Source: a virus
Virus record (IMG/VR): IMGVR_UViG_3300024255_000002
Length of the DNA: 64,000 nucleotides
Direction: 5' to 3' (one strand)
Part shown: one piece after another, positions 26,275-64,000 of the stretch
How the letters are laid out: every line of letters begins with the position of its first letter
Numbering within the stretch: the first letter of the stretch is position 1
Position numbers and translations under genes: made by a program
The notes under the pieces: model-generated
What the model was told of the DNA's origin: nothing
Database searches by the model: none
What the model saw: the letters and a program-made list of their open reading frames with translations, nothing else

Positions 26275-26925
26275 ATGAAACTTATTACTGAAGAAATAGA
26301 AAACGCCGAGTACATTATTGAAGAATCAGGTAACGGCAAAAAAAATTACTCTATAAAGGGTGTCTTCATGCAAGCGGACATCAAAAATAAAAACGGTAGA
26401 GTTTATCCTAGAGAGACTCTTCAAAAAGAAATCGCTCGATATACAAGAGAGTTTATCGACAAAAGTAGAGCATTTGGCGAACTAGGTCATCCTGACGGTC
26501 CCACTGTCAACCTAGAAAGAGTATCGCACATGATCAAATCTTTAACTCCAGAAGGAAATAACTTTATAGGAGAGGCGAAAGTCTTAGATACCCCATATGG
26601 AAAAATTGTGAAGTCTTTAATTGATGAGGGTGCAAAACTAGGAGTTTCATCTCGTGGAATGGGAACATTAAAATCATCTAATGGAATGAATGTTGTCAAT
26701 GACGATTTTTATCTTGCTACAGCAGCTGATATAGTTGCAGACCCCAGCGCTCCAGACGCTTTCGTAGAAGGCATTATGGAAGGAAAAGAATGGGTATGGA
26801 ATAATGGAATATTGAGAGAGCAAGAAATGAAAGAATTAAAATTACAGGCAGATAAGAAAATACTAAGAGAAGAACGAGCAAATAAAAATGCTCAAATCTT
26901 TGAGAATTTTCTTAAAAAACTGTAA
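26275..26925 (+). CDS. gp21: prohead protease gp21
   Basis: 'MKLITE', 'NGRVY', 'GELGHP', 'GVSSRG.G', 'D.VADPSAPDA'; late promoter at 26239. Confidence 0.96.
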   Translation: MKLITEEIENAEYIIEESGNGKKNYSIKGVFMQADIKNKNGRVYPRETLQKEIARYTREFIDKSRAFGELGHPDGPTVNLERVSHMIKSLTPEGNNFIGEAKVLDTPYGKIVKSLIDEGAKLGVSSRGMGTLKSSNGMNVVNDDFYLATAADIVADPSAPDAFVEGIMEGKEWVWNNGILREQEMKELKLQADKKILREERANKNAQIFENFLKKL

Positions 26926-28561: not shown

Positions 28562-29911
28562 ATGTTTTTATCTGAATCAATACAACAGAAGTGGCAGCCC
28601 GTTTTGGACCATCCTGATCTTCCAGAAGTGAAGAACAGTTACAAAAGAGCCGTAACTTCAGTTATTTTAGAAAACCAAGAAAAGTCGTTAAAAGAAGACG
28701 CTGCTTTCTTATCAGAGTCAGCACCTACTAACGCTACTGGTTCTTCTATTCAAAATTGGAATCCTATCTTAATTAGTCTAGTAAGAAGAGCAATGCCTAA
28801 CCTTATCGCTTACGATATCGCTGGTGTTCAACCTATGTCAGGACCAACTGGTTTGATATTTGCTATGAGAAGCAGATACAACAGCCAATCTGGCGGTGAA
28901 GCTCTTTTTGACGAAGCTGATTCTGATTTTTCTGGCAGAAACAAAGCCGGTTCATCAGTAGATGGATTTTCATCAACAGACCACAGTGGAACTAATCCAT
29001 CTGTACTTAACGACTCATCACCAGGAACTTACACACAAGGTACTGGTATGACTACAGCTGCTGCTGAAGCTCTAGGAGATGCCGCTGGTAACTCTTTTGC
29101 TGAAATGGCATTCTCAATTGAGAAATCAACTGTAACTGCTAAAAGCAGAGCGTTAAAAGCAGAATACACAATGGAACTTGCTCAAGACTTAAAAGCAATC
29201 CATGGTTTAGACGCTGAAACAGAATTATCAAACATCTTATCTGCTGAAATCTTAGCTGAAATCAACAGAGAAGTAGTAAGATCAGTTTATATTACTGCTG
29301 AAAAAGGTGCTTCTGATAACAATGGTAACGCTGTAAACACTACTTCGGAAGGTATCTTTGATTTAGATACTGACTCAAACGGTAGATGGTCAGTTGAGAG
29401 ATTCAAAGGTCTTATGTTCCAATTGGAAAGAGACGCTAATGCAATCGCTCAAAGAACAAGAAGAGGAAAAGGTAATATAATCATTTGCTCATCTGATGTT
29501 GCTTCTGCACTTCAAATGGCTGGTGTTTTAGATTACACTCCTGCTCTTAACAACAACTTAAACGTTGATGATACTGGAAACACTTTCGCTGGTGTATTAA
29601 ATGGTAAATATAAAGTTTACATTGATCCATACAGTGCAAACCAATCTGGTAAACAATTCTACGTTGTGGGTTACAAAGGAACTTCACCATACGATGCTGG
29701 TATGTTCTATTGCCCATATGTACCACTTCAGATGGTAAGAGCTGTTGGCCAAGACACTTTCCAACCAAAAATTGGTTTCAAAACTAGATACGGTTTAGTT
29801 GCGAACCCATTTGCTGGTGCAGCTGCTGACGGTAATATTACTGTTGACGGTATTGGAAATGCTAACGCTAACAGATACTACAGACGTGTTCAAGTTGCGA
29901 ACATTATGTAA
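28562..29911 (+). CDS. gp23: major capsid protein gp23
   Basis: 'LVRR.MPNLIAYD..GVQPM.GPTG.IFA', 'AKSRALKAEYT.ELAQDLKAIHG', 'FQPKIGFKTRYG'. Confidence 0.98.
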   Translation: MFLSESIQQKWQPVLDHPDLPEVKNSYKRAVTSVILENQEKSLKEDAAFLSESAPTNATGSSIQNWNPILISLVRRAMPNLIAYDIAGVQPMSGPTGLIFAMRSRYNSQSGGEALFDEADSDFSGRNKAGSSVDGFSSTDHSGTNPSVLNDSSPGTYTQGTGMTTAAAEALGDAAGNSFAEMAFSIEKSTVTAKSRALKAEYTMELAQDLKAIHGLDAETELSNILSAEILAEINREVVRSVYITAEKGASDNNGNAVNTTSEGIFDLDTDSNGRWSVERFKGLMFQLERDANAIAQRTRRGKGNIIICSSDVASALQMAGVLDYTPALNNNLNVDDTGNTFAGVLNGKYKVYIDPYSANQSGKQFYVVGYKGTSPYDAGMFYCPYVPLQMVRAVGQDTFQPKIGFKTRYGLVANPFAGAAADGNITVDGIGNANANRYYRRVQVANIM

Positions 29912-58642: not shown

Positions 58643-58716
58643 TATAAATAGTCATAAAAAAGATTGTATTTGTTTATGGAATAGTGCTTGACAAATAGCA
58701 CTAAATTTGATATAAT
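58643..58716 (+). promoter_or_regulatory. tandem late (TATAAATA 58643-50) and sigma70 (TTGACA 58688-93, 17 nt, TATAAT 58711-16) promoters with an inverted repeat over the -35
   Basis: tagtgct(58682-88)...agcacta(58697-703). Confidence 0.75.
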
Positions 58717-58743: not shown

Positions 58744-59967
58744 ATGCAAAGTTTTAAACAATATTTAAGTGAGGCTAAAAATACTCATTTAGAACATTTA
58801 GAAGATTCTATCATTAATGATGGATATGAAGGTGGTGTTAATGCCATTACATTTCTTAAATCATTAAGAGATATGCTTATCGGATCGTCAAGTAGAGGAT
58901 TAAACGTTTCAGTAAAATGGGACGGTGCTCCTGCTGTGATCTGTGGTATCAATCCTGAAAACGGCAAATTCTTTGTTGGATCAAAATCAGTATTCAACGT
59001 AACTCCCAAAATAAATTATACATCTGCTGATATTAGAAGAAATCACACAGGCGGACTTGCTGAAAAATTACAAGTTGCATTAGTAGAATTAAAGAAATTA
59101 GGAATCAAAGGCGTTGTTCAAGGTGACTTTTTATACACTAACAATGAATTAAAAAGTGCCAACATAAGAGGTGAAAGTGTTTTAACTTTTACACCTAATA
59201 CAATCACATATGCTGTGCCTGTAGATAGTACAATAGGTAAAAGAATTGCCTCTGCTAAAATGGGTATCATATTTCACACAACATACACTGGTAGAAAAAT
59301 GGCAGACTTAAAAGCAAACTTTGGTGTGAACGTAAGTTCATTTAGAAAAACATCATCTGTATTTTTTGATGACGCAGGATACAAAGACGCTTCAGGTGTT
59401 GCTACATTTACAACTGCTGAAAGTGAAAGATATGACGCAATGTTAAGAATGGCATTTGGTTCTGTAAGTAAAGGCAGACCAATATTAAACTTATTAAGTA
59501 AACAACAAAATTTATATTCTGTTGGTGCTAGACTTAAAATATTTTTCAATGACTTTATTAGAAGAGGTCAATCAATAGAAAATGTAAGTAAGTTAGTATC
59601 ACAATTTAGAACATATTATATTAGTGTTTTAGACAAAGAAATATCGGCAAGAAAAACACAAAATGCAAAAGATAAATTTGAAGCAATCAAAAATGAAGGA
59701 CTAAAATTTATGGAAAAAAATGAAGTCGGTATATATTTTGCCATTGCTAGTTATGTGACATTACAAAGAGTAAAAGATTTCTTAATAAACAAAATGAATC
59801 AAATAAAAAGTATAGGAACATTTTTACAAAAAGACAATGGGTTTGAAGTTACAAATCCAGAAGGATATGTTGCCGTAGATAGAATGGGCAACGCTGTAAA
59901 ACTAGTTGATAGATTAGAGTTTAGTACTGCTAACTTTAATATTTCTAAGAACTGGATAAAAGGATAA
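58744..59967 (+). CDS. ATP-dependent ligase-like nucleotidyltransferase (RNA-ligase-like) with capsid-targeting-like N-terminus
   Basis: Motif I VKWDG, Ia FVGSKS, III VVQGD, IV PEGYV, V VKLVDR; starts MQSFKQYLSE-A. Confidence 0.6.
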   Translation: MQSFKQYLSEAKNTHLEHLEDSIINDGYEGGVNAITFLKSLRDMLIGSSSRGLNVSVKWDGAPAVICGINPENGKFFVGSKSVFNVTPKINYTSADIRRNHTGGLAEKLQVALVELKKLGIKGVVQGDFLYTNNELKSANIRGESVLTFTPNTITYAVPVDSTIGKRIASAKMGIIFHTTYTGRKMADLKANFGVNVSSFRKTSSVFFDDAGYKDASGVATFTTAESERYDAMLRMAFGSVSKGRPILNLLSKQQNLYSVGARLKIFFNDFIRRGQSIENVSKLVSQFRTYYISVLDKEISARKTQNAKDKFEAIKNEGLKFMEKNEVGIYFAIASYVTLQRVKDFLINKMNQIKSIGTFLQKDNGFEVTNPEGYVAVDRMGNAVKLVDRLEFSTANFNISKNWIKG

Positions 59968-59970
59968 GAT

Positions 59971-61329
59971 ATGGCAAATTTTAGAAAAGACTCACAGGCA
60001 TTTTTAAACGATAGTAAAACTATCTTTGAAGTACCAATGATAGCAACAAAAGATGGTAATGTTGTATCACAAACAAATCCGTTTCCAGTCACAATATCAA
60101 ATACTGGAACCAGTCAAACAATTTCAACAGAAACAAATGTGGATGCTTTTGGTAGAAGTAGAATATCATCACCACTAACACTATTTGATTCCTCACATAG
60201 ATTTGCTGATAATGATTTATGGAATGAAGATATTACAGGTGACGCTTCATCAACCTTTCAAATAAATGAGGGTCTAATAGATTTAACAGTTGGTGATAAT
60301 GCTAATGATGAAATTATTAGAGAAACAAATAAAGTAATGGCTTATCAACCTGGTAAATCATTGTTAATTTTAAATTCTTTTATATTTAATGCTGCTAAAA
60401 CTGGATTAAGACAAAGAATAGGATATTTTGGAACAGACAATGGTATCTATTTTGAACAAGATGGTACAGATGTTTATATAGTAGAAAGAAGTAAAATAAC
60501 AGGTTCAGTTGTAGAAAGTAGAATTGCTCAAGCAGATTGGAATATAGATAAATTAGATGGCACAGGTATAACAGGTTATACTTTAGATTTAACAAAAGCA
60601 CAAATTCAATATATAGATTTAGAATGGTTAGGTGTAGGAACCGTAAGAGCAGGTTTTGTTATTAATGGTAGATTTGTAGTTGCTCACGCATTTCATCACG
60701 CTAATTTAGTATCTGGAACATATATCACTACAGGTTCTTTACCTTTAAGATGTGAAATTAAACAACAAACGGAAGTTGGAGATGGTTCTACCGCTACATT
60801 AAAACAAGTTTGTTCTAGTGTTATGAGTGAAGGTGGTTATGAATTAAGAGGAAGGCAACAAGCTATTGGAACAGTGATTACTTCTCCTTATAGATTAACA
60901 ACTGCTGGAACTTATTATCCTGTAGCTTCTATAAGACTAAAAGCTGCAAGACTAGATGCAATTGTTATTCTTACTGCTTTATCTTTATTGGGAACTGGAA
61001 ATGGAAAATTTTATAATTGGCAAGTGGTTGCTGGTGGAAGTATTGCGGGTGGAACTTGGGTGTCTGGTGGAGCAAACTCATCTGTTGAATATAATATTAC
61101 AGGCACTGATCACACATTAGGGACAGGAAGAATATTGGCTAGTGGTTTTACTTCTTCTTCCAAACAAATAAGTGAATCTATTAATATATTAAAAGAAGCT
61201 TTATTTAAGTTTCAATTAGAGAGAAATACATTTACTAGTACACCTGAAATTTTAACATTGAGATTGGCTTGTGATAGTAATACAGAAGATGTTTTTGGTT
61301 CCATGGACTGGGAGGAGGTTACTAGATAA
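59971..61329 (+). CDS. hypothetical beta-rich protein, probably virion structural
   Basis: 'NPFPV', 'DAFGR.R.S.P.TLF', 'YQPGKS', 'EWLGVG.VR.GF'; G/T-rich. Confidence 0.55.
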   Translation: MANFRKDSQAFLNDSKTIFEVPMIATKDGNVVSQTNPFPVTISNTGTSQTISTETNVDAFGRSRISSPLTLFDSSHRFADNDLWNEDITGDASSTFQINEGLIDLTVGDNANDEIIRETNKVMAYQPGKSLLILNSFIFNAAKTGLRQRIGYFGTDNGIYFEQDGTDVYIVERSKITGSVVESRIAQADWNIDKLDGTGITGYTLDLTKAQIQYIDLEWLGVGTVRAGFVINGRFVVAHAFHHANLVSGTYITTGSLPLRCEIKQQTEVGDGSTATLKQVCSSVMSEGGYELRGRQQAIGTVITSPYRLTTAGTYYPVASIRLKAARLDAIVILTALSLLGTGNGKFYNWQVVAGGSIAGGTWVSGGANSSVEYNITGTDHTLGTGRILASGFTSSSKQISESINILKEALFKFQLERNTFTSTPEILTLRLACDSNTEDVFGSMDWEEVTR

Positions 61330-61913
61330 TGAAAACATTTAGAACATATATTAAAGAGGCACAACAAAGACGAATAGTTATGTTAGGTGGTCCTGGTTCA
61401 GGTAAATCAACATACACTAAGTATTTGATGGATAGATACGGCATACCTCACATATATCCAGGTGGCATGTTAAGAAAAGAAGTTGAGAAAAATACAGAAA
61501 TAGGAAAACAAATTAAAGATTTAATTACAAAAGGTAAGTTTGCACCTAGTGAAATGGTTTTAAAACTTATTAAAGACAGAATTGCAGAAAGTCCAGACGG
61601 ATATGTATTAGACGGATGGCCTAGATATATGAAACAAGTAAGAGAAATGGAACGAGAAAATATCGGACATGATGTTGCTGTGTTTTTAGATGTAAGTAAA
61701 GAAGAAGTAATGAAACGATTACTTGCAAGAGGTAGAGTTGATGATACCGAAGAAGTTATCAACGATAGAATTAAACTATACAAAGAAGAAACTGGTCCTG
61801 TTGTAGAATACTTTAGAAATAAACCTGGTTTTATAAGTATTAAAGCAGAGGGTGATACACCAGAAAACATTAGTAAAAAAATTATTAGAGAAATAGAAAA
61901 TGAAAAGCTTTAA
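61329..61913 (+). CDS. adk: adenylate kinase (short-LID type) with capsid-targeting-like N-terminus
   Basis: GGPGSGKST, 'G.MLR', 'VLDGWPR', 'RGR.DD...I..R...Y...T.PV'; starts MKTFRTYIKE-A. Confidence 0.88.
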   Translation: MKTFRTYIKEAQQRRIVMLGGPGSGKSTYTKYLMDRYGIPHIYPGGMLRKEVEKNTEIGKQIKDLITKGKFAPSEMVLKLIKDRIAESPDGYVLDGWPRYMKQVREMERENIGHDVAVFLDVSKEEVMKRLLARGRVDDTEEVINDRIKLYKEETGPVVEYFRNKPGFISIKAEGDTPENISKKIIREIENEKL

Positions 61914-64000
61914 ACAATTTAACGAGTCTATTATAGACATACCAAGAAAAACGTATGCAAAGGCAGTATTTGATAAACCAGATACACCTAATCCAGAGTT
62001 AAAAGCTTCAGTTAAAAAACAAGTATTAGACGGAATTAAGTCATTTGAAAAATTTGGAAAAGTAGTTAAGTATGGTCTTATTGGATCAATACTAACAAAA
62101 CAATATAGAGGTGACGCTGACCTTGATGTTAATATTTTATTTGATATACCTGGTTCAAAAGAAGAACAAGAAAAGGTACATGAAAAAATAAAAGAACATC
62201 AATATGAAATAAATGGTAAAACAATACCAGGCAGTGAACATCCTATAAACTATTTTTCTATCATAGATCCTGCTATATTTGATAAGGCAAATAAGATGGC
62301 AGATGGTATTTTTGATATCGATAAGAACAAATGGATCAAAAAACCAGAACCAGGCAAATTTGAACCTGAAAAATATATGGCGGATTTTCAGAAACGAGTA
62401 TCTGAAATAGATGTTGTTAAGGGTGAATTGGCAAGAGACATGATTGATTATGAAGAACTAAAAGAACTAGGCAAAGACGATATAGAAAACCTAGAAGGAT
62501 TAGTTTCTAAAAAGTTAGCTGAAATTAAAGATTCCATTAACACATTATTTGATATTGGTGCTAAAACTGTTAAAGATCGAAAAGACGCTTTCTTAGCAGA
62601 TATGTCACCAGACGAAGTAAGAAAATTTGGAGTAAAAAACCGACTTCCTAAAAACGTGATTTATAAAATGTTAGAAAAGTATCATTATCTCAAATTCTTT
62701 AAAACTTTGGAAGAGATTATGTTGGATGGTAAAATAACACCAGATGAACTTAAATCGTTATCTAAGATTAAAGAAGCCAAAGGTAGACATATAGCGTTTA
62801 CCTTTGGCCGATTTAATCCACCTACAATAGGACATGGAAAATTATTACAAAAATTATTTACAGTTAGAGCAGACAACCACTTTATATTTTTAAGTAGATC
62901 GGAAGACTCAGATAAGAACCCATTATCATTTAGAGAGAAGTCAAAAGTTATGAAACAAATGTTTCCTAGATATGCTTCAAACATAATAGTAAGTGGTTCA
63001 AATAGAGTATTTGATATAGTCACTGATCTTTACAATAAAGGTGCTACAGAATTATCAATGGTTGTCGGTTCAGATAGAGTAAGAGAATTTGACACCACTA
63101 TTAAAAAATATAATGGTGTAAAAAGCAGACATGGTTATTATAACTTTGATAACATTAATATAGTTTCTGCTGGAGAAAGAGATCCAGATGCTGACGGCGC
63201 TACAGGAATGTCAGCAAGTAAAATGAGAGCGGCCGCTAAGGCAAATGATTTAGATGCATTTAAAAAAGGATTGCCAAGTGGATTTAGAGACGCCGAAGAA
63301 TTAATAAAAAGATTAAGACAAGGCATGAGATTGGCTGCTTCAAACGATCCAGAAATAGAAGAAGGAACATTAAAGTTTAAACCATTTATAACTGCTTCTA
63401 CAAAAGAGGAGTTAGAAAATATGATTATAAGAGACAAGTATTTAACAGAGCATTTATATGATGTAGGAGACATTGTTGATGATGTTGAGAATAAAGTTAC
63501 AGGTGTTATCGTAAGACGAGGAACAAACTATGTAACACTTGAAGACGTTGATAATAAACTACATAAGTCATGGTTATTTAATATTATTGAATCGCCTGTT
63601 TATCCTAGAGAATTAGACGAGTCGGCAAAAAAATTAAAATACGACAAAGAGACAGATCAACCTAAAAAATATGTTGCTGGTTTATCAGACAAAGAGAAGA
63701 AGTCACACGACAAACATTTAGAAAAACAAGGCAAAAAATCTGACGATGATAAAAGTGCTTACACACAATCGCCAGCAGATAAAGTTGCTAAAACTAAACC
63801 AAGTGTTCATACAAAGAAATTCAAACAAATGTATGGTGAACTTAAAACTGAAAAAGAGCCACAAAAAAGAGGTGATGAATTTGTAGATACTGGATTGCCT
63901 GAAAGTTCAAATAGAAAGGCAGATGAGTTAGAACATGCTAAATTAATGAATAAGGCACTTAGAACTATGCCACAATCTATTAAACAAAAAGAAATTATAA
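61900..64000 (+). CDS. large multidomain protein, 3'-truncated: Pol-beta-type nucleotidyltransferase + HxGH cytidylyltransferase-like domain + further domains (absent from ORF track because it runs off the window)
   Basis: Manual translation open from ATG 61900 to the window end: MKSFKQFNES...LIGSILTKQYRGDADLDV (GS..DxD)...TFGRFNPPTIGHGKL...VGSDR...SAGERDPD..MSASKMR. Confidence 0.8.
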   Translation, partial: MKSFKQFNESIIDIPRKTYAKAVFDKPDTPNPELKASVKKQVLDGIKSFEKFGKVVKYGLIGSILTKQYRGDADLDVNILFDIPGSKEEQEKVHEKIKEHQYEINGKTIPGSEHPINYFSIIDPAIFDKANKMADGIFDIDKNKWIKKPEPGKFEPEKYMADFQKRVSEIDVVKGELARDMIDYEELKELGKDDIENLEGLVSKKLAEIKDSINTLFDIGAKTVKDRKDAFLADMSPDEVRKFGVKNRLPKNVIYKMLEKYHYLKFFKTLEEIMLDGKITPDELKSLSKIKEAKGRHIAFTFGRFNPPTIGHGKLLQKLFTVRADNHFIFLSRSEDSDKNPLSFREKSKVMKQMFPRYASNIIVSGSNRVFDIVTDLYNKGATELSMVVGSDRVREFDTTIKKYNGVKSRHGYYNFDNINIVSAGERDPDADGATGMSASKMRAAAKANDLDAFKKGLPSGFRDAEELIKRLRQGMRLAASNDPEIEEGTLKFKPFITASTKEELENMIIRDKYLTEHLYDVGDIVDDVENKVTGVIVRRGTNYVTLEDVDNKLHKSWLFNIIESPVYPRELDESAKKLKYDKETDQPKKYVAGLSDKEKKSHDKHLEKQGKKSDDDKSAYTQSPADKVAKTKPSVHTKKFKQMYGELKTEKEPQKRGDEFVDTGLPESSNRKADELEHAKLMNKALRTMPQSIKQKEII

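Follow-up and report, generated by a model that had tools for sequence, protein, structure and literature searches.

A nucleotidyltransferase fusion protein with a predicted T4-type capsid-targeting leader in a T4-like marine phage

Introduction

T4-like phages of SAR11 and of cyanobacteria are among the most numerous marine viruses. In phage T4, the internal proteins IPI, IPII and IPIII (and Alt) carry a short leader on unrelated cargo, with aromatic residues at positions 4 and 7 and a hydrophobic-x-Glu end followed by Ala or Ser. According to the part of PMC9026906 that deals with this capsid targeting sequence (CTS), loading depends on residues 4 and 7, and cutting by the prohead protease gp21 on residues 8 and 10; very few determinants besides Glu are described for this protease. 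In T4, Asp in the final position of the leader prevents processing and leaves targeting intact (PMC9026906). The present work concerns an open reading frame (ORF), here called the target, at the 3′ end of a 64,000-nucleotide stretch of the IMG/VR virus record IMGVR_UViG_3300024255_000002 (the whole stretch is called the window). The window comes from a T4-like marine myovirus, a pelagimyophage-like relative of T4, and the target encodes a nucleotidyltransferase fusion that appears to begin with a leader of this type. In the sequences below a slash marks a putative cut.

The core cyanophage 'cytidylyltransferase' (T4-GC190; S-CREM2 gp154, S-SZBM1_140) has a homologous HxGH domain, a small beta domain and a leader like that of the target. 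It is a stand-alone protein of 286–382 residues that has been seen in purified particles, whereas in the window the HxGH domain follows a Pol-beta nucleotidyltransferase within a fusion protein, and an internal joint stands where the cyanophage enzyme has its leader. In the giant phages phiKZ, 201phi2-1 and SPN3US, cleavage of packaged proteins takes place after Glu and depends on little else, and propeptides may have multiple sites. These phages form a different group, most of the proteins cut in them have a structural role or belong to the inner body, with unknown activity, and no T4-type shared tag is described for them in the part of PMC9026906 that covers them.

Like T4, the window phage encodes a protease of gp21 type and a scaffold of gp22 type, together with gp23. 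The T4 cargo consists of single small proteins, whereas the cargo of the window would be a multi-enzyme chain of about 1035 residues with leader remnants between its modules; its leader has nine residues and Phe at P3, and loading and cutting are predicted here from sequence. The mechanism is already known from T4; the clade, the enzymatic cargo and the polyprotein form would be new. No discussion of a link between leader and enzyme was found in the full-text literature on capsid targeting together with cyanophages or cytidylyltransferases. We report the domain identities of the target and its leader pattern, and show that its joints coincide with leaders and how far the sites are conserved.

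Extent and relatives of the fusion protein

The ORF and the modules that lie within the window are as follows.

61900..64000, + strand: target ORF, 700 amino acids in the window (61900..63999), open at the 3′ end
61927..62775, + strand: module 1, residues 10–292, an MNT/ANT-type Pol-beta superfamily core (residues ~14–155) followed by a helical region
62776..63591, + strand: module 2, residues 293–564, with the HxGH domain, a disordered stretch (480–518) and a small beta domain (519–564)
63592..63903, + strand: module 3, residues 565–668, basic (isoelectric point 9.1), DUF5824-like

The target is a real and widespread multi-module fusion protein. In its chain a Pol-beta nucleotidyltransferase comes first and is followed by an HxGH nucleotidylyltransferase that carries a small beta domain; then come a basic DUF5824-like module and more modules towards the C-terminus. 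The original prediction had flagged an overlooked ORF with a Pol-beta-like and then an HxGH nucleotidyltransferase domain; the ORF is real (61900..63999, + strand, 700 residues), its features lie where they had been placed, and Pfam, PHROG, invariant motifs and fold matches bear out both domain identities. The start at 61900 overlaps the last codons of the adenylate kinase (Adk) gene (61329–61913).

Judged from a metagenome protein of 1036 residues (P0003) that is 94% identical, the full-length protein would have about 1035 residues. The nearest record (G001) encodes a 984-residue version with 97% identity to the target across residues 1–672. The last 32 residues of the window are common to P0003 and belong to an insert of about 50 residues that G001 lacks; the tail of the window is 84% identical to residues 634–703 of P0003. 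The insert is opened by the sequence GLPE/S and in P0003 closes with a second site, PLSE/S. A family search scored 7999 candidates, of which 3454 reached E ≤ 0.001; the top 120 were 634–1153 residues long, and 572 of 601 candidate stretches from a viral contig collection were confirmed as relatives of the target. AlphaFold (AF2) models delimited domains at residues 12–155, 295–478 and 519–580. The calculated masses are about 32.5 kDa for module 1, about 30.8 kDa for module 2 and about 11.9 kDa for module 3, compared with about 115 kDa for the full-length protein.

N-terminal leader

The N-termini of all ORFs in the window were read, and three genes of one string were seen to begin alike.

61900..61926, + strand: target leader MKSFKQFNE, residues 1–9, with F4, F7 and a Glu end; putative cut E9/S10
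58744..59967, + strand: DUF6267 protein (Pfam E 5e-123), leader MQSFKQYLSE/A; first gene of the string
61329..61913, + strand: adenylate kinase (Pfam ADK, E 6e-38), leader MKTFRTYIKE/A

In the T4 genome (NC_000866), IPII and IPIII start with MKTYQEFIAE/A and IPI with MKTFKEFTSTTTPVSTITE/A. All three leaders of the window have aromatic residues at positions 4 and 7, as in the T4 CTS, and those of Adk and the DUF6267 protein also have Ile or Leu at 8 and Glu at 10. The N-terminus of the target can thus be read as a T4-type capsid-targeting leader pattern, which the original prediction had missed.

For conservation, target ORFs passing the filter were obtained from 53 of 81 sources (the remaining 28 had no such ORF); 45 were complete, giving 39 unique fused relatives besides the window's own. 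E9 and S10 are invariant in the aligned relatives, with frequencies of 1.00 and 1.00 in these 39. The P3 residue of the leader column is hydrophobic in 54% of relatives, mostly as IKE/S, and the family consensus is MRFKDFIKE/S. Residues 1–11 of the model have a predicted local distance difference test (pLDDT) score below 50.

A strict leader pattern set beforehand, M[KRQ]x[FY]xx[FY][ILVM]xE or its nine-residue form, was run over the window together with 80 related loci. Matches were found at 59 of 983 N-termini versus 14 of 252,788 internal positions. Of the N-terminal matches, 21 fall in the target family, 27 are adenylate kinases, three are DUF6267 proteins and eight are others; on Adk the leader type is kept in 27 related sources. 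Twelve of the 14 internal matches sit within 14 residues of the called start, which suggests start codons called too far upstream. One lies in the target homologue of locus L053, at residue 919 of a 1034-residue fusion, right before the last module and with its Met kept.

Capsid cargo may include Adk itself, which the literature lists among the auxiliary metabolic genes of pelagimyophages.

Joints as former leaders

The sites of [IL]xE[AS] type in the target are as follows.

62761–62787, + strand: SKIKE/AKGR joint, residues 288–296; a relic leader with Ile at P3, Glu at P1 and Ala at P1′
63580..63594, + strand: NIIE/S joint, residues 561–565; kept in the close clade only
residues 571–575, + strand: ELDE/S site
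63892..63906, + strand: GLPE/S joint, residues 665–669

Against these four, shuffling the protein 5000 times gave 0.93 ± 0.95 such sites, and four were reached in 1.3% of the shuffles; the excess is mild. The modules that the joints connect occur as separate genes in related phages. Stand-alone module-1 proteins of 290–310 residues, on contigs of up to 152 kb, start with M[KR]xF[KR][DQ]..E/SIIDIPR (324 of 1028 candidates in this search had E ≤ 0.001). The HxGH enzyme of Melnitz starts with MKKFSEIIE/ARGDTAVFTFGRFNPPT, which aligns residue for residue with ...LSKIKE/AKGRHIAFTFGRFNPPT of the fusion. Cyanophage HxGH enzymes start with MKKFSAFLSE/A and MKRYTNFLSE/A, and gp154 of S-CREM2 starts with MKNFSSFLTE/A and ends where the window has NIIE/S. 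The last module is a gene of its own in several loci and in phage C48C1, with the start MKTFKEYE/N or MKKFKQYIDE/G. In variants with an additional N-terminal PAP2 phosphatase, a new leader stands in front and ...LRKSFSE/SIIDIPR is kept inside. By these alignments the joints of the fusion would be remnants of the leaders that such genes carry where they stand alone in related phages. The IKE-A match to the Adk leader that had been pointed out before was found again (Adk begins MKTFRTYIKE/AQQ).

Among 16 [ILVMF]xE sites in the window protein, three keep Glu and a small P1′ residue in the 39 fused relatives: the leader, IKE/A and GLPE/S. At IKE/A, Glu and a small P1′ are both at 1.00 (39/39), down to 47% identity, and P3 is hydrophobic at 0.72; at GLPE/S both are at 0.85. 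The IKE/A joint has kept the processing positions and lost the aromatic targeting positions, and the surrounding segment (residues 276–294) has pLDDT below 50 and is predicted to be disordered. The aligned Glu and small pair is found in about 5 of 12 tails of stand-alone module-1 proteins. Retention of IKE/A in 39/39 fusions versus about 5/12 such tails is the pattern expected from selection for cutting, and is no proof of it.

NIIE/S is invariant among the 27 closer aligned relatives. As a general joint it was rejected beyond this close clade, where distant relatives read WIWDCIP..., and ELDE/S was rejected as a joint, with LEER/A at the aligned place in most relatives. The original claim that gp21-type sites mark the domain junctions therefore stands for IKE/A and GLPE/S, holds for NIIE/S within the close clade and falls for ELDE/S.

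Further fusions that retain a whole leader, including its Met, before the second module were seen in L087:14227 (a 182-residue ORF) and at residue 919 in L053; the leader-retaining joint sequences are ...KEKEMKSFKQHIKE/A and ...RSMKNFTEYLAE/V.

Module 1

62083–62088, + strand: G62-S63, the GS motif
62119–62127, + strand: D74-x-D76, the DxD motif

Residues 47–102 matched Pfam NTP_transf_2 with 20.9 bits versus a cut-off of 21, and precomputed PF01909 annotation is present on relatives. G62, S63, D74 and D76 are invariant across 27 aligned relatives; in a further alignment, which includes the stand-alone forms, G62, D74 and D76 remain invariant and S63 varies. The model has a confident core (residues 12–155) with a weaker helical region behind it. 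Fold matches were 1ylq_B (Z 7.9, root-mean-square deviation 2.8 Å for 90 residues), 2rff (Z 7.2) and the MNT antitoxin 8xeh (Z 6.3). Foldseek with the module-1 model gave nothing at E ≤ 0.001, the best match being the aminoglycoside nucleotidyltransferase AAD(9) at 3.5e-3. Module 1 has its core fold and the GS and DxD motifs in common with MNTs (1ylq, 2rff and the HEPN-MNT antitoxin 8xeh) and aminoglycoside nucleotidyltransferases; it differs in that the scores are modest and its helical C-terminal half has no specific match.

Module 1 was not found by tblastn in cultured phages, all 549 matching records of the phage collection matching the HxGH part only. Profile–profile comparison in hhalign aligned gp156 of S-CREM2, which is on the virion list of that phage, with module 1 over 203 collinear columns (E 3.7e-4, probability 36%). 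Weaker tests gave a 14-residue BLASTP match (E 0.016) and single-sequence hhalign probabilities of 0.4% and 1.7%. On this basis gp156 is probably a remote homologue of module 1.

Module 2

62800–62835, + strand: TFGRFNPPTIGH, residues 301–312, containing TIGH (T309-I-G-H312)

Residues 301–400 matched Pfam CTP_transf_like with 21.4 bits versus a cut-off of 21, and residues 283–617 matched PHROG cytidyltransferase families with E 7e-68 and 1e-63. T309, G311 and H312 of TIGH and the stretch S438-A-S-K-M-R443 are invariant in the 27 aligned relatives. The model has a confident domain at residues 295–478 and a small beta domain at 519–580. Foldseek with the HxGH domain gave 66 matches at E ≤ 0.001 to PPAT, NaMNAT and NMNAT structures (best 3.6e-5); a sequence search of the PDB reached E 0.13 at best. 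With gp154 of S-CREM2, module 2 shares 31% identity over 271 columns (E 1e-29).

CoaD (PPAT) and NadD, NadM and NadR have in common with module 2 the Rossmann-type HxGH fold, the (T/H)xGH motif and an SxxxxR-like motif, whereas module 2 scores far below every equivalog cut-off. An NMNAT or PPAT identity was rejected at the family level (TIGR01526, 17.8 bits versus 341; NF006479, 16 versus 164). Because no equivalog model comes near its cut-off, neither activity can be assigned to the HxGH domain.

C-terminal modules

residues 588–596, + strand: PKKYVAGLS, start of the basic stretch of module 3
residues 631–638, + strand: KTKPSVHT, end of this stretch

Pfam DUF5824 matched residues 588–653 of the target weakly (19.6 bits, cut-off 25) and the relatives P0080 and P0075 with 25.5–26.8 bits. 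Matches of the C-terminal modules were limited to the families of unknown function DUF5824, DUF5754 and DUF7417. In locus L031 the missing last module is a separate gene of 100 residues that has moved upstream of Adk.

Protease, capsid genes and virion proteomes

26275..26925, + strand: gp21-type prohead protease (Pfam Peptidase_S77, E 1.3e-33), the presumed processing enzyme
28709..28720, + strand: LSE/S in the major capsid protein, 10 residues before the Gp23 domain; the expected propeptide cut

The window also encodes a T4-type scaffold (T4_CASP, E 4e-68) and Gp23 (E 7e-151). The position of LSE/S directly before the Gp23 domain makes a T4-like specificity of the protease plausible.

Homologues of the HxGH enzyme appear in the virion protein data of three papers: as T4-GC190 in S-SM1 (PMC3037559), as gp154 with three peptides in S-CREM2 (Table 3 of PMC10665884) and as S-SZBM1_140 with two peptides in S-SZBM1 (PMC9146016). 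The N-terminus of S-SZBM1_140 is MRFRQFIIE/A. PMC10665884 further cites the phages S-CBWM1 and S-SCSM1. In the whole genome of S-CREM2, 51 of 217 called genes are virion-listed. The strict pattern found two genes, both virion-listed (p 0.054), or three of three with the annotated GTG start of gp14. A relaxed pattern, written after the list had been seen, found six genes, five of them virion-listed (Fisher p 0.003). The leaders include those of the SAM hydrolase gp6 (MKDFDSFLEE), the kinase gp14 (VKRFDAFLTE, GTG start) and gp15 (MNFSEFNE/S); gp13, gp136 and gp154 are also leader-bearing, and gp12 has the motif near its start. The 'non-structural' S-CREM2 virion proteins with a leader motif comprise a SAM hydrolase, an APH/ChoK-like kinase, a Cas9-like nuclease, the cytidylyltransferase and small proteins of unknown function.

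Gene string and expression context

58643..58650, + strand: TATAAATA, late-promoter-like motif upstream of the gene string
58688..58716, + strand: perfect TTGACA-N17-TATAAT, a sigma70 consensus behind TATAAATA
59971..61329, + strand: virion structural protein gene (phrog_1645), 452 residues, PHROG E 6.9e-151

The string runs in the order DUF6267 protein, structural protein (phrog_1645), Adk and target. The large genes of the window, among them those for terminase, sheath, portal, scaffold, capsid protein, a gp43-type polymerase and UvsX, are all on the + strand. All 17 matches to TATAAATA, which we take to be a T4-type late motif, lie on this coding strand, most of them just upstream of structural genes. 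Their total is not above chance in the window (17 versus 13.5 ± 3.5); what is suggestive about them is limited to strand bias and position. Together, the sigma70 consensus and the late motif suggest that the gene string may be expressed both early and late.

In the window and in L028 the phrog_1645 gene separates the DUF6267 gene from Adk; G001 lacks it there, and its DUF6267 gene adjoins Adk. Between Adk and the target, eleven of 13 examined relatives (L014, L023, L028, L031–L033, L036, L038, L045, L053 and L089) carry a second gene that is P-loop kinase-like. It encodes 228–231 residues with a leader-like start, e.g. MKVNSFIQHLAE/GVYDPGIFKAFFLAGGPGSGKT, and is lacking in the window and G001. 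The next conserved gene downstream of the target (L001, L014, L031, L036 and L089; gp132 of HTVC008M; gene 20 of Melnitz) starts with M[ST][KR]Y[KR]x[TS][WMF]x[ED]. This N-terminal motif is distinct from the T4-type leader and may be another leader class.

Discussion

In the mechanism that we propose, the nine-residue leader would act like the T4 capsid targeting sequence and bind the scaffolding core of the prohead, and the gp21-type protease of the phage would remove it after Glu9. The same protease would cut at least the disordered SKIKE/AKGR joint, and probably GLPE/S, and the enzymes would be freed inside the capsid, to enter the host with the DNA and the leader-bearing adenylate kinase. 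The cuts, the ejection and the substrates are pure inference. Loading of the target into the capsid through its T4-type leader is likely, its chance being that of loading with and loading without internal cutting taken together. Internal cutting at IKE/A, and probably at GLPE/S, is plausible from the conservation of these sites. For the full scenario, capsid loading plus internal cutting into separate enzymes, we would put the chance somewhat below even.

A tentative extension, slightly more doubtful than that scenario, is a 'cargo train', in which one N-terminal leader would load a polyprotein of at least five modules and the protease would cut at leader remnants that keep the processing residues only. 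As part of the same proposal, a Pol-beta nucleotidyltransferase, an HxGH adenylyltransferase-like enzyme and small basic proteins would be released for injection with the DNA. With the same leader on every cargo gene, in-frame fusion or fission of neighbours would always yield a working joint, and this would explain the many architectures in ocean metagenomes.

Several observations weigh against loading followed by cutting. The target leader is one residue shorter and has Phe rather than Ile or Leu at P3 (FNE/S). NIIE/S lies outside any low-confidence linker. Model quality is middling (mean pLDDT 66.1 and 66.9; predicted template-modelling scores 0.34 and 0.49). A fused form was not found in cultured phages, since 0 of the 549 matching phage-collection records cover at least 80% of the query, and the kinship of gp156 with module 1 is moderately supported by the profile comparison. 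A virion association of the target is drawn solely by analogy, from homologues in published proteomes. The detections of these homologues rest on two to three peptides, the S-CREM2 authors allow for carry-over of such abundant proteins from the lysate in the part of PMC10665884 that discusses them, and the supplement of that paper has no peptide lists in which a cut leader could be sought.

Some of the evidence would also fit a protein that is packaged and loses only residues 1–9, as T4 IPIII does, and then works as one multi-domain enzyme whose joints are fusion scars. We regard this as rather unlikely. Leader remnants do persist at C-termini with no module downstream: P0099, P0100, P0102 and L031–L033 end right after the remnant ..KSFKEFWAQSE..NEQV, so remnants can persist unused. 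Two of the sites are poorly conserved in the 39 fused relatives (NIIE/S, Glu 0.28 and small P1′ 0.33; ELDE/S, 0.26 and 0.03), the IKE/A joint has no aromatic positions, as decay predicts, and linked nucleotidyltransferases could serve substrate channelling. Decay into a scar fits less well with the Glu-Ala pair at the IKE joint, which is present in all 39 fusions and in about five of 12 stand-alone tails, and with the predicted disorder of this joint. Moreover, gp21 needs little besides Glu, as far as the account of it in PMC9026906 goes, and with so few determinants an exposed IKE/A site inside the prohead would be hard to protect.

The target might instead stay outside the capsid as a cytoplasmic, multi-domain auxiliary metabolic enzyme, its N-terminal motif serving translation initiation, stability or another purpose; this we consider more unlikely still. 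Adk and the 'cytidylyltransferase' are treated as auxiliary metabolic genes in the relevant parts of PMC7029224 and PMC9146016, the perfect sigma70-type promoter on the gene string makes early expression possible, and the virion peptide counts are low. Against this, the motif reproduces the determinant positions of the T4 CTS, and fusions retain the leader internally as protein sequence, where translation initiation plays no part. Leader-bearing proteins are also enriched in the S-CREM2 virion list, and the enzyme occurs in three proteomes from separate papers (S-SM1, S-CREM2 and S-SZBM1).

Loading through the leader followed by internal cutting can be tested directly, with cultured relatives (HTVC008M and Melnitz, whose gp130 and gene 18, respectively, are multi-module forms, and many cyanophages) and the T4 CTS-GFP assay at hand. 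If true, it would explain the recurrent finding of a 'cytidylyltransferase' in purified cyanophage particles, and adenylate kinase and cytidylyltransferase would be reclassified from auxiliary metabolic genes to injected early effectors. It would also mean that a DNA phage uses a polyprotein strategy.

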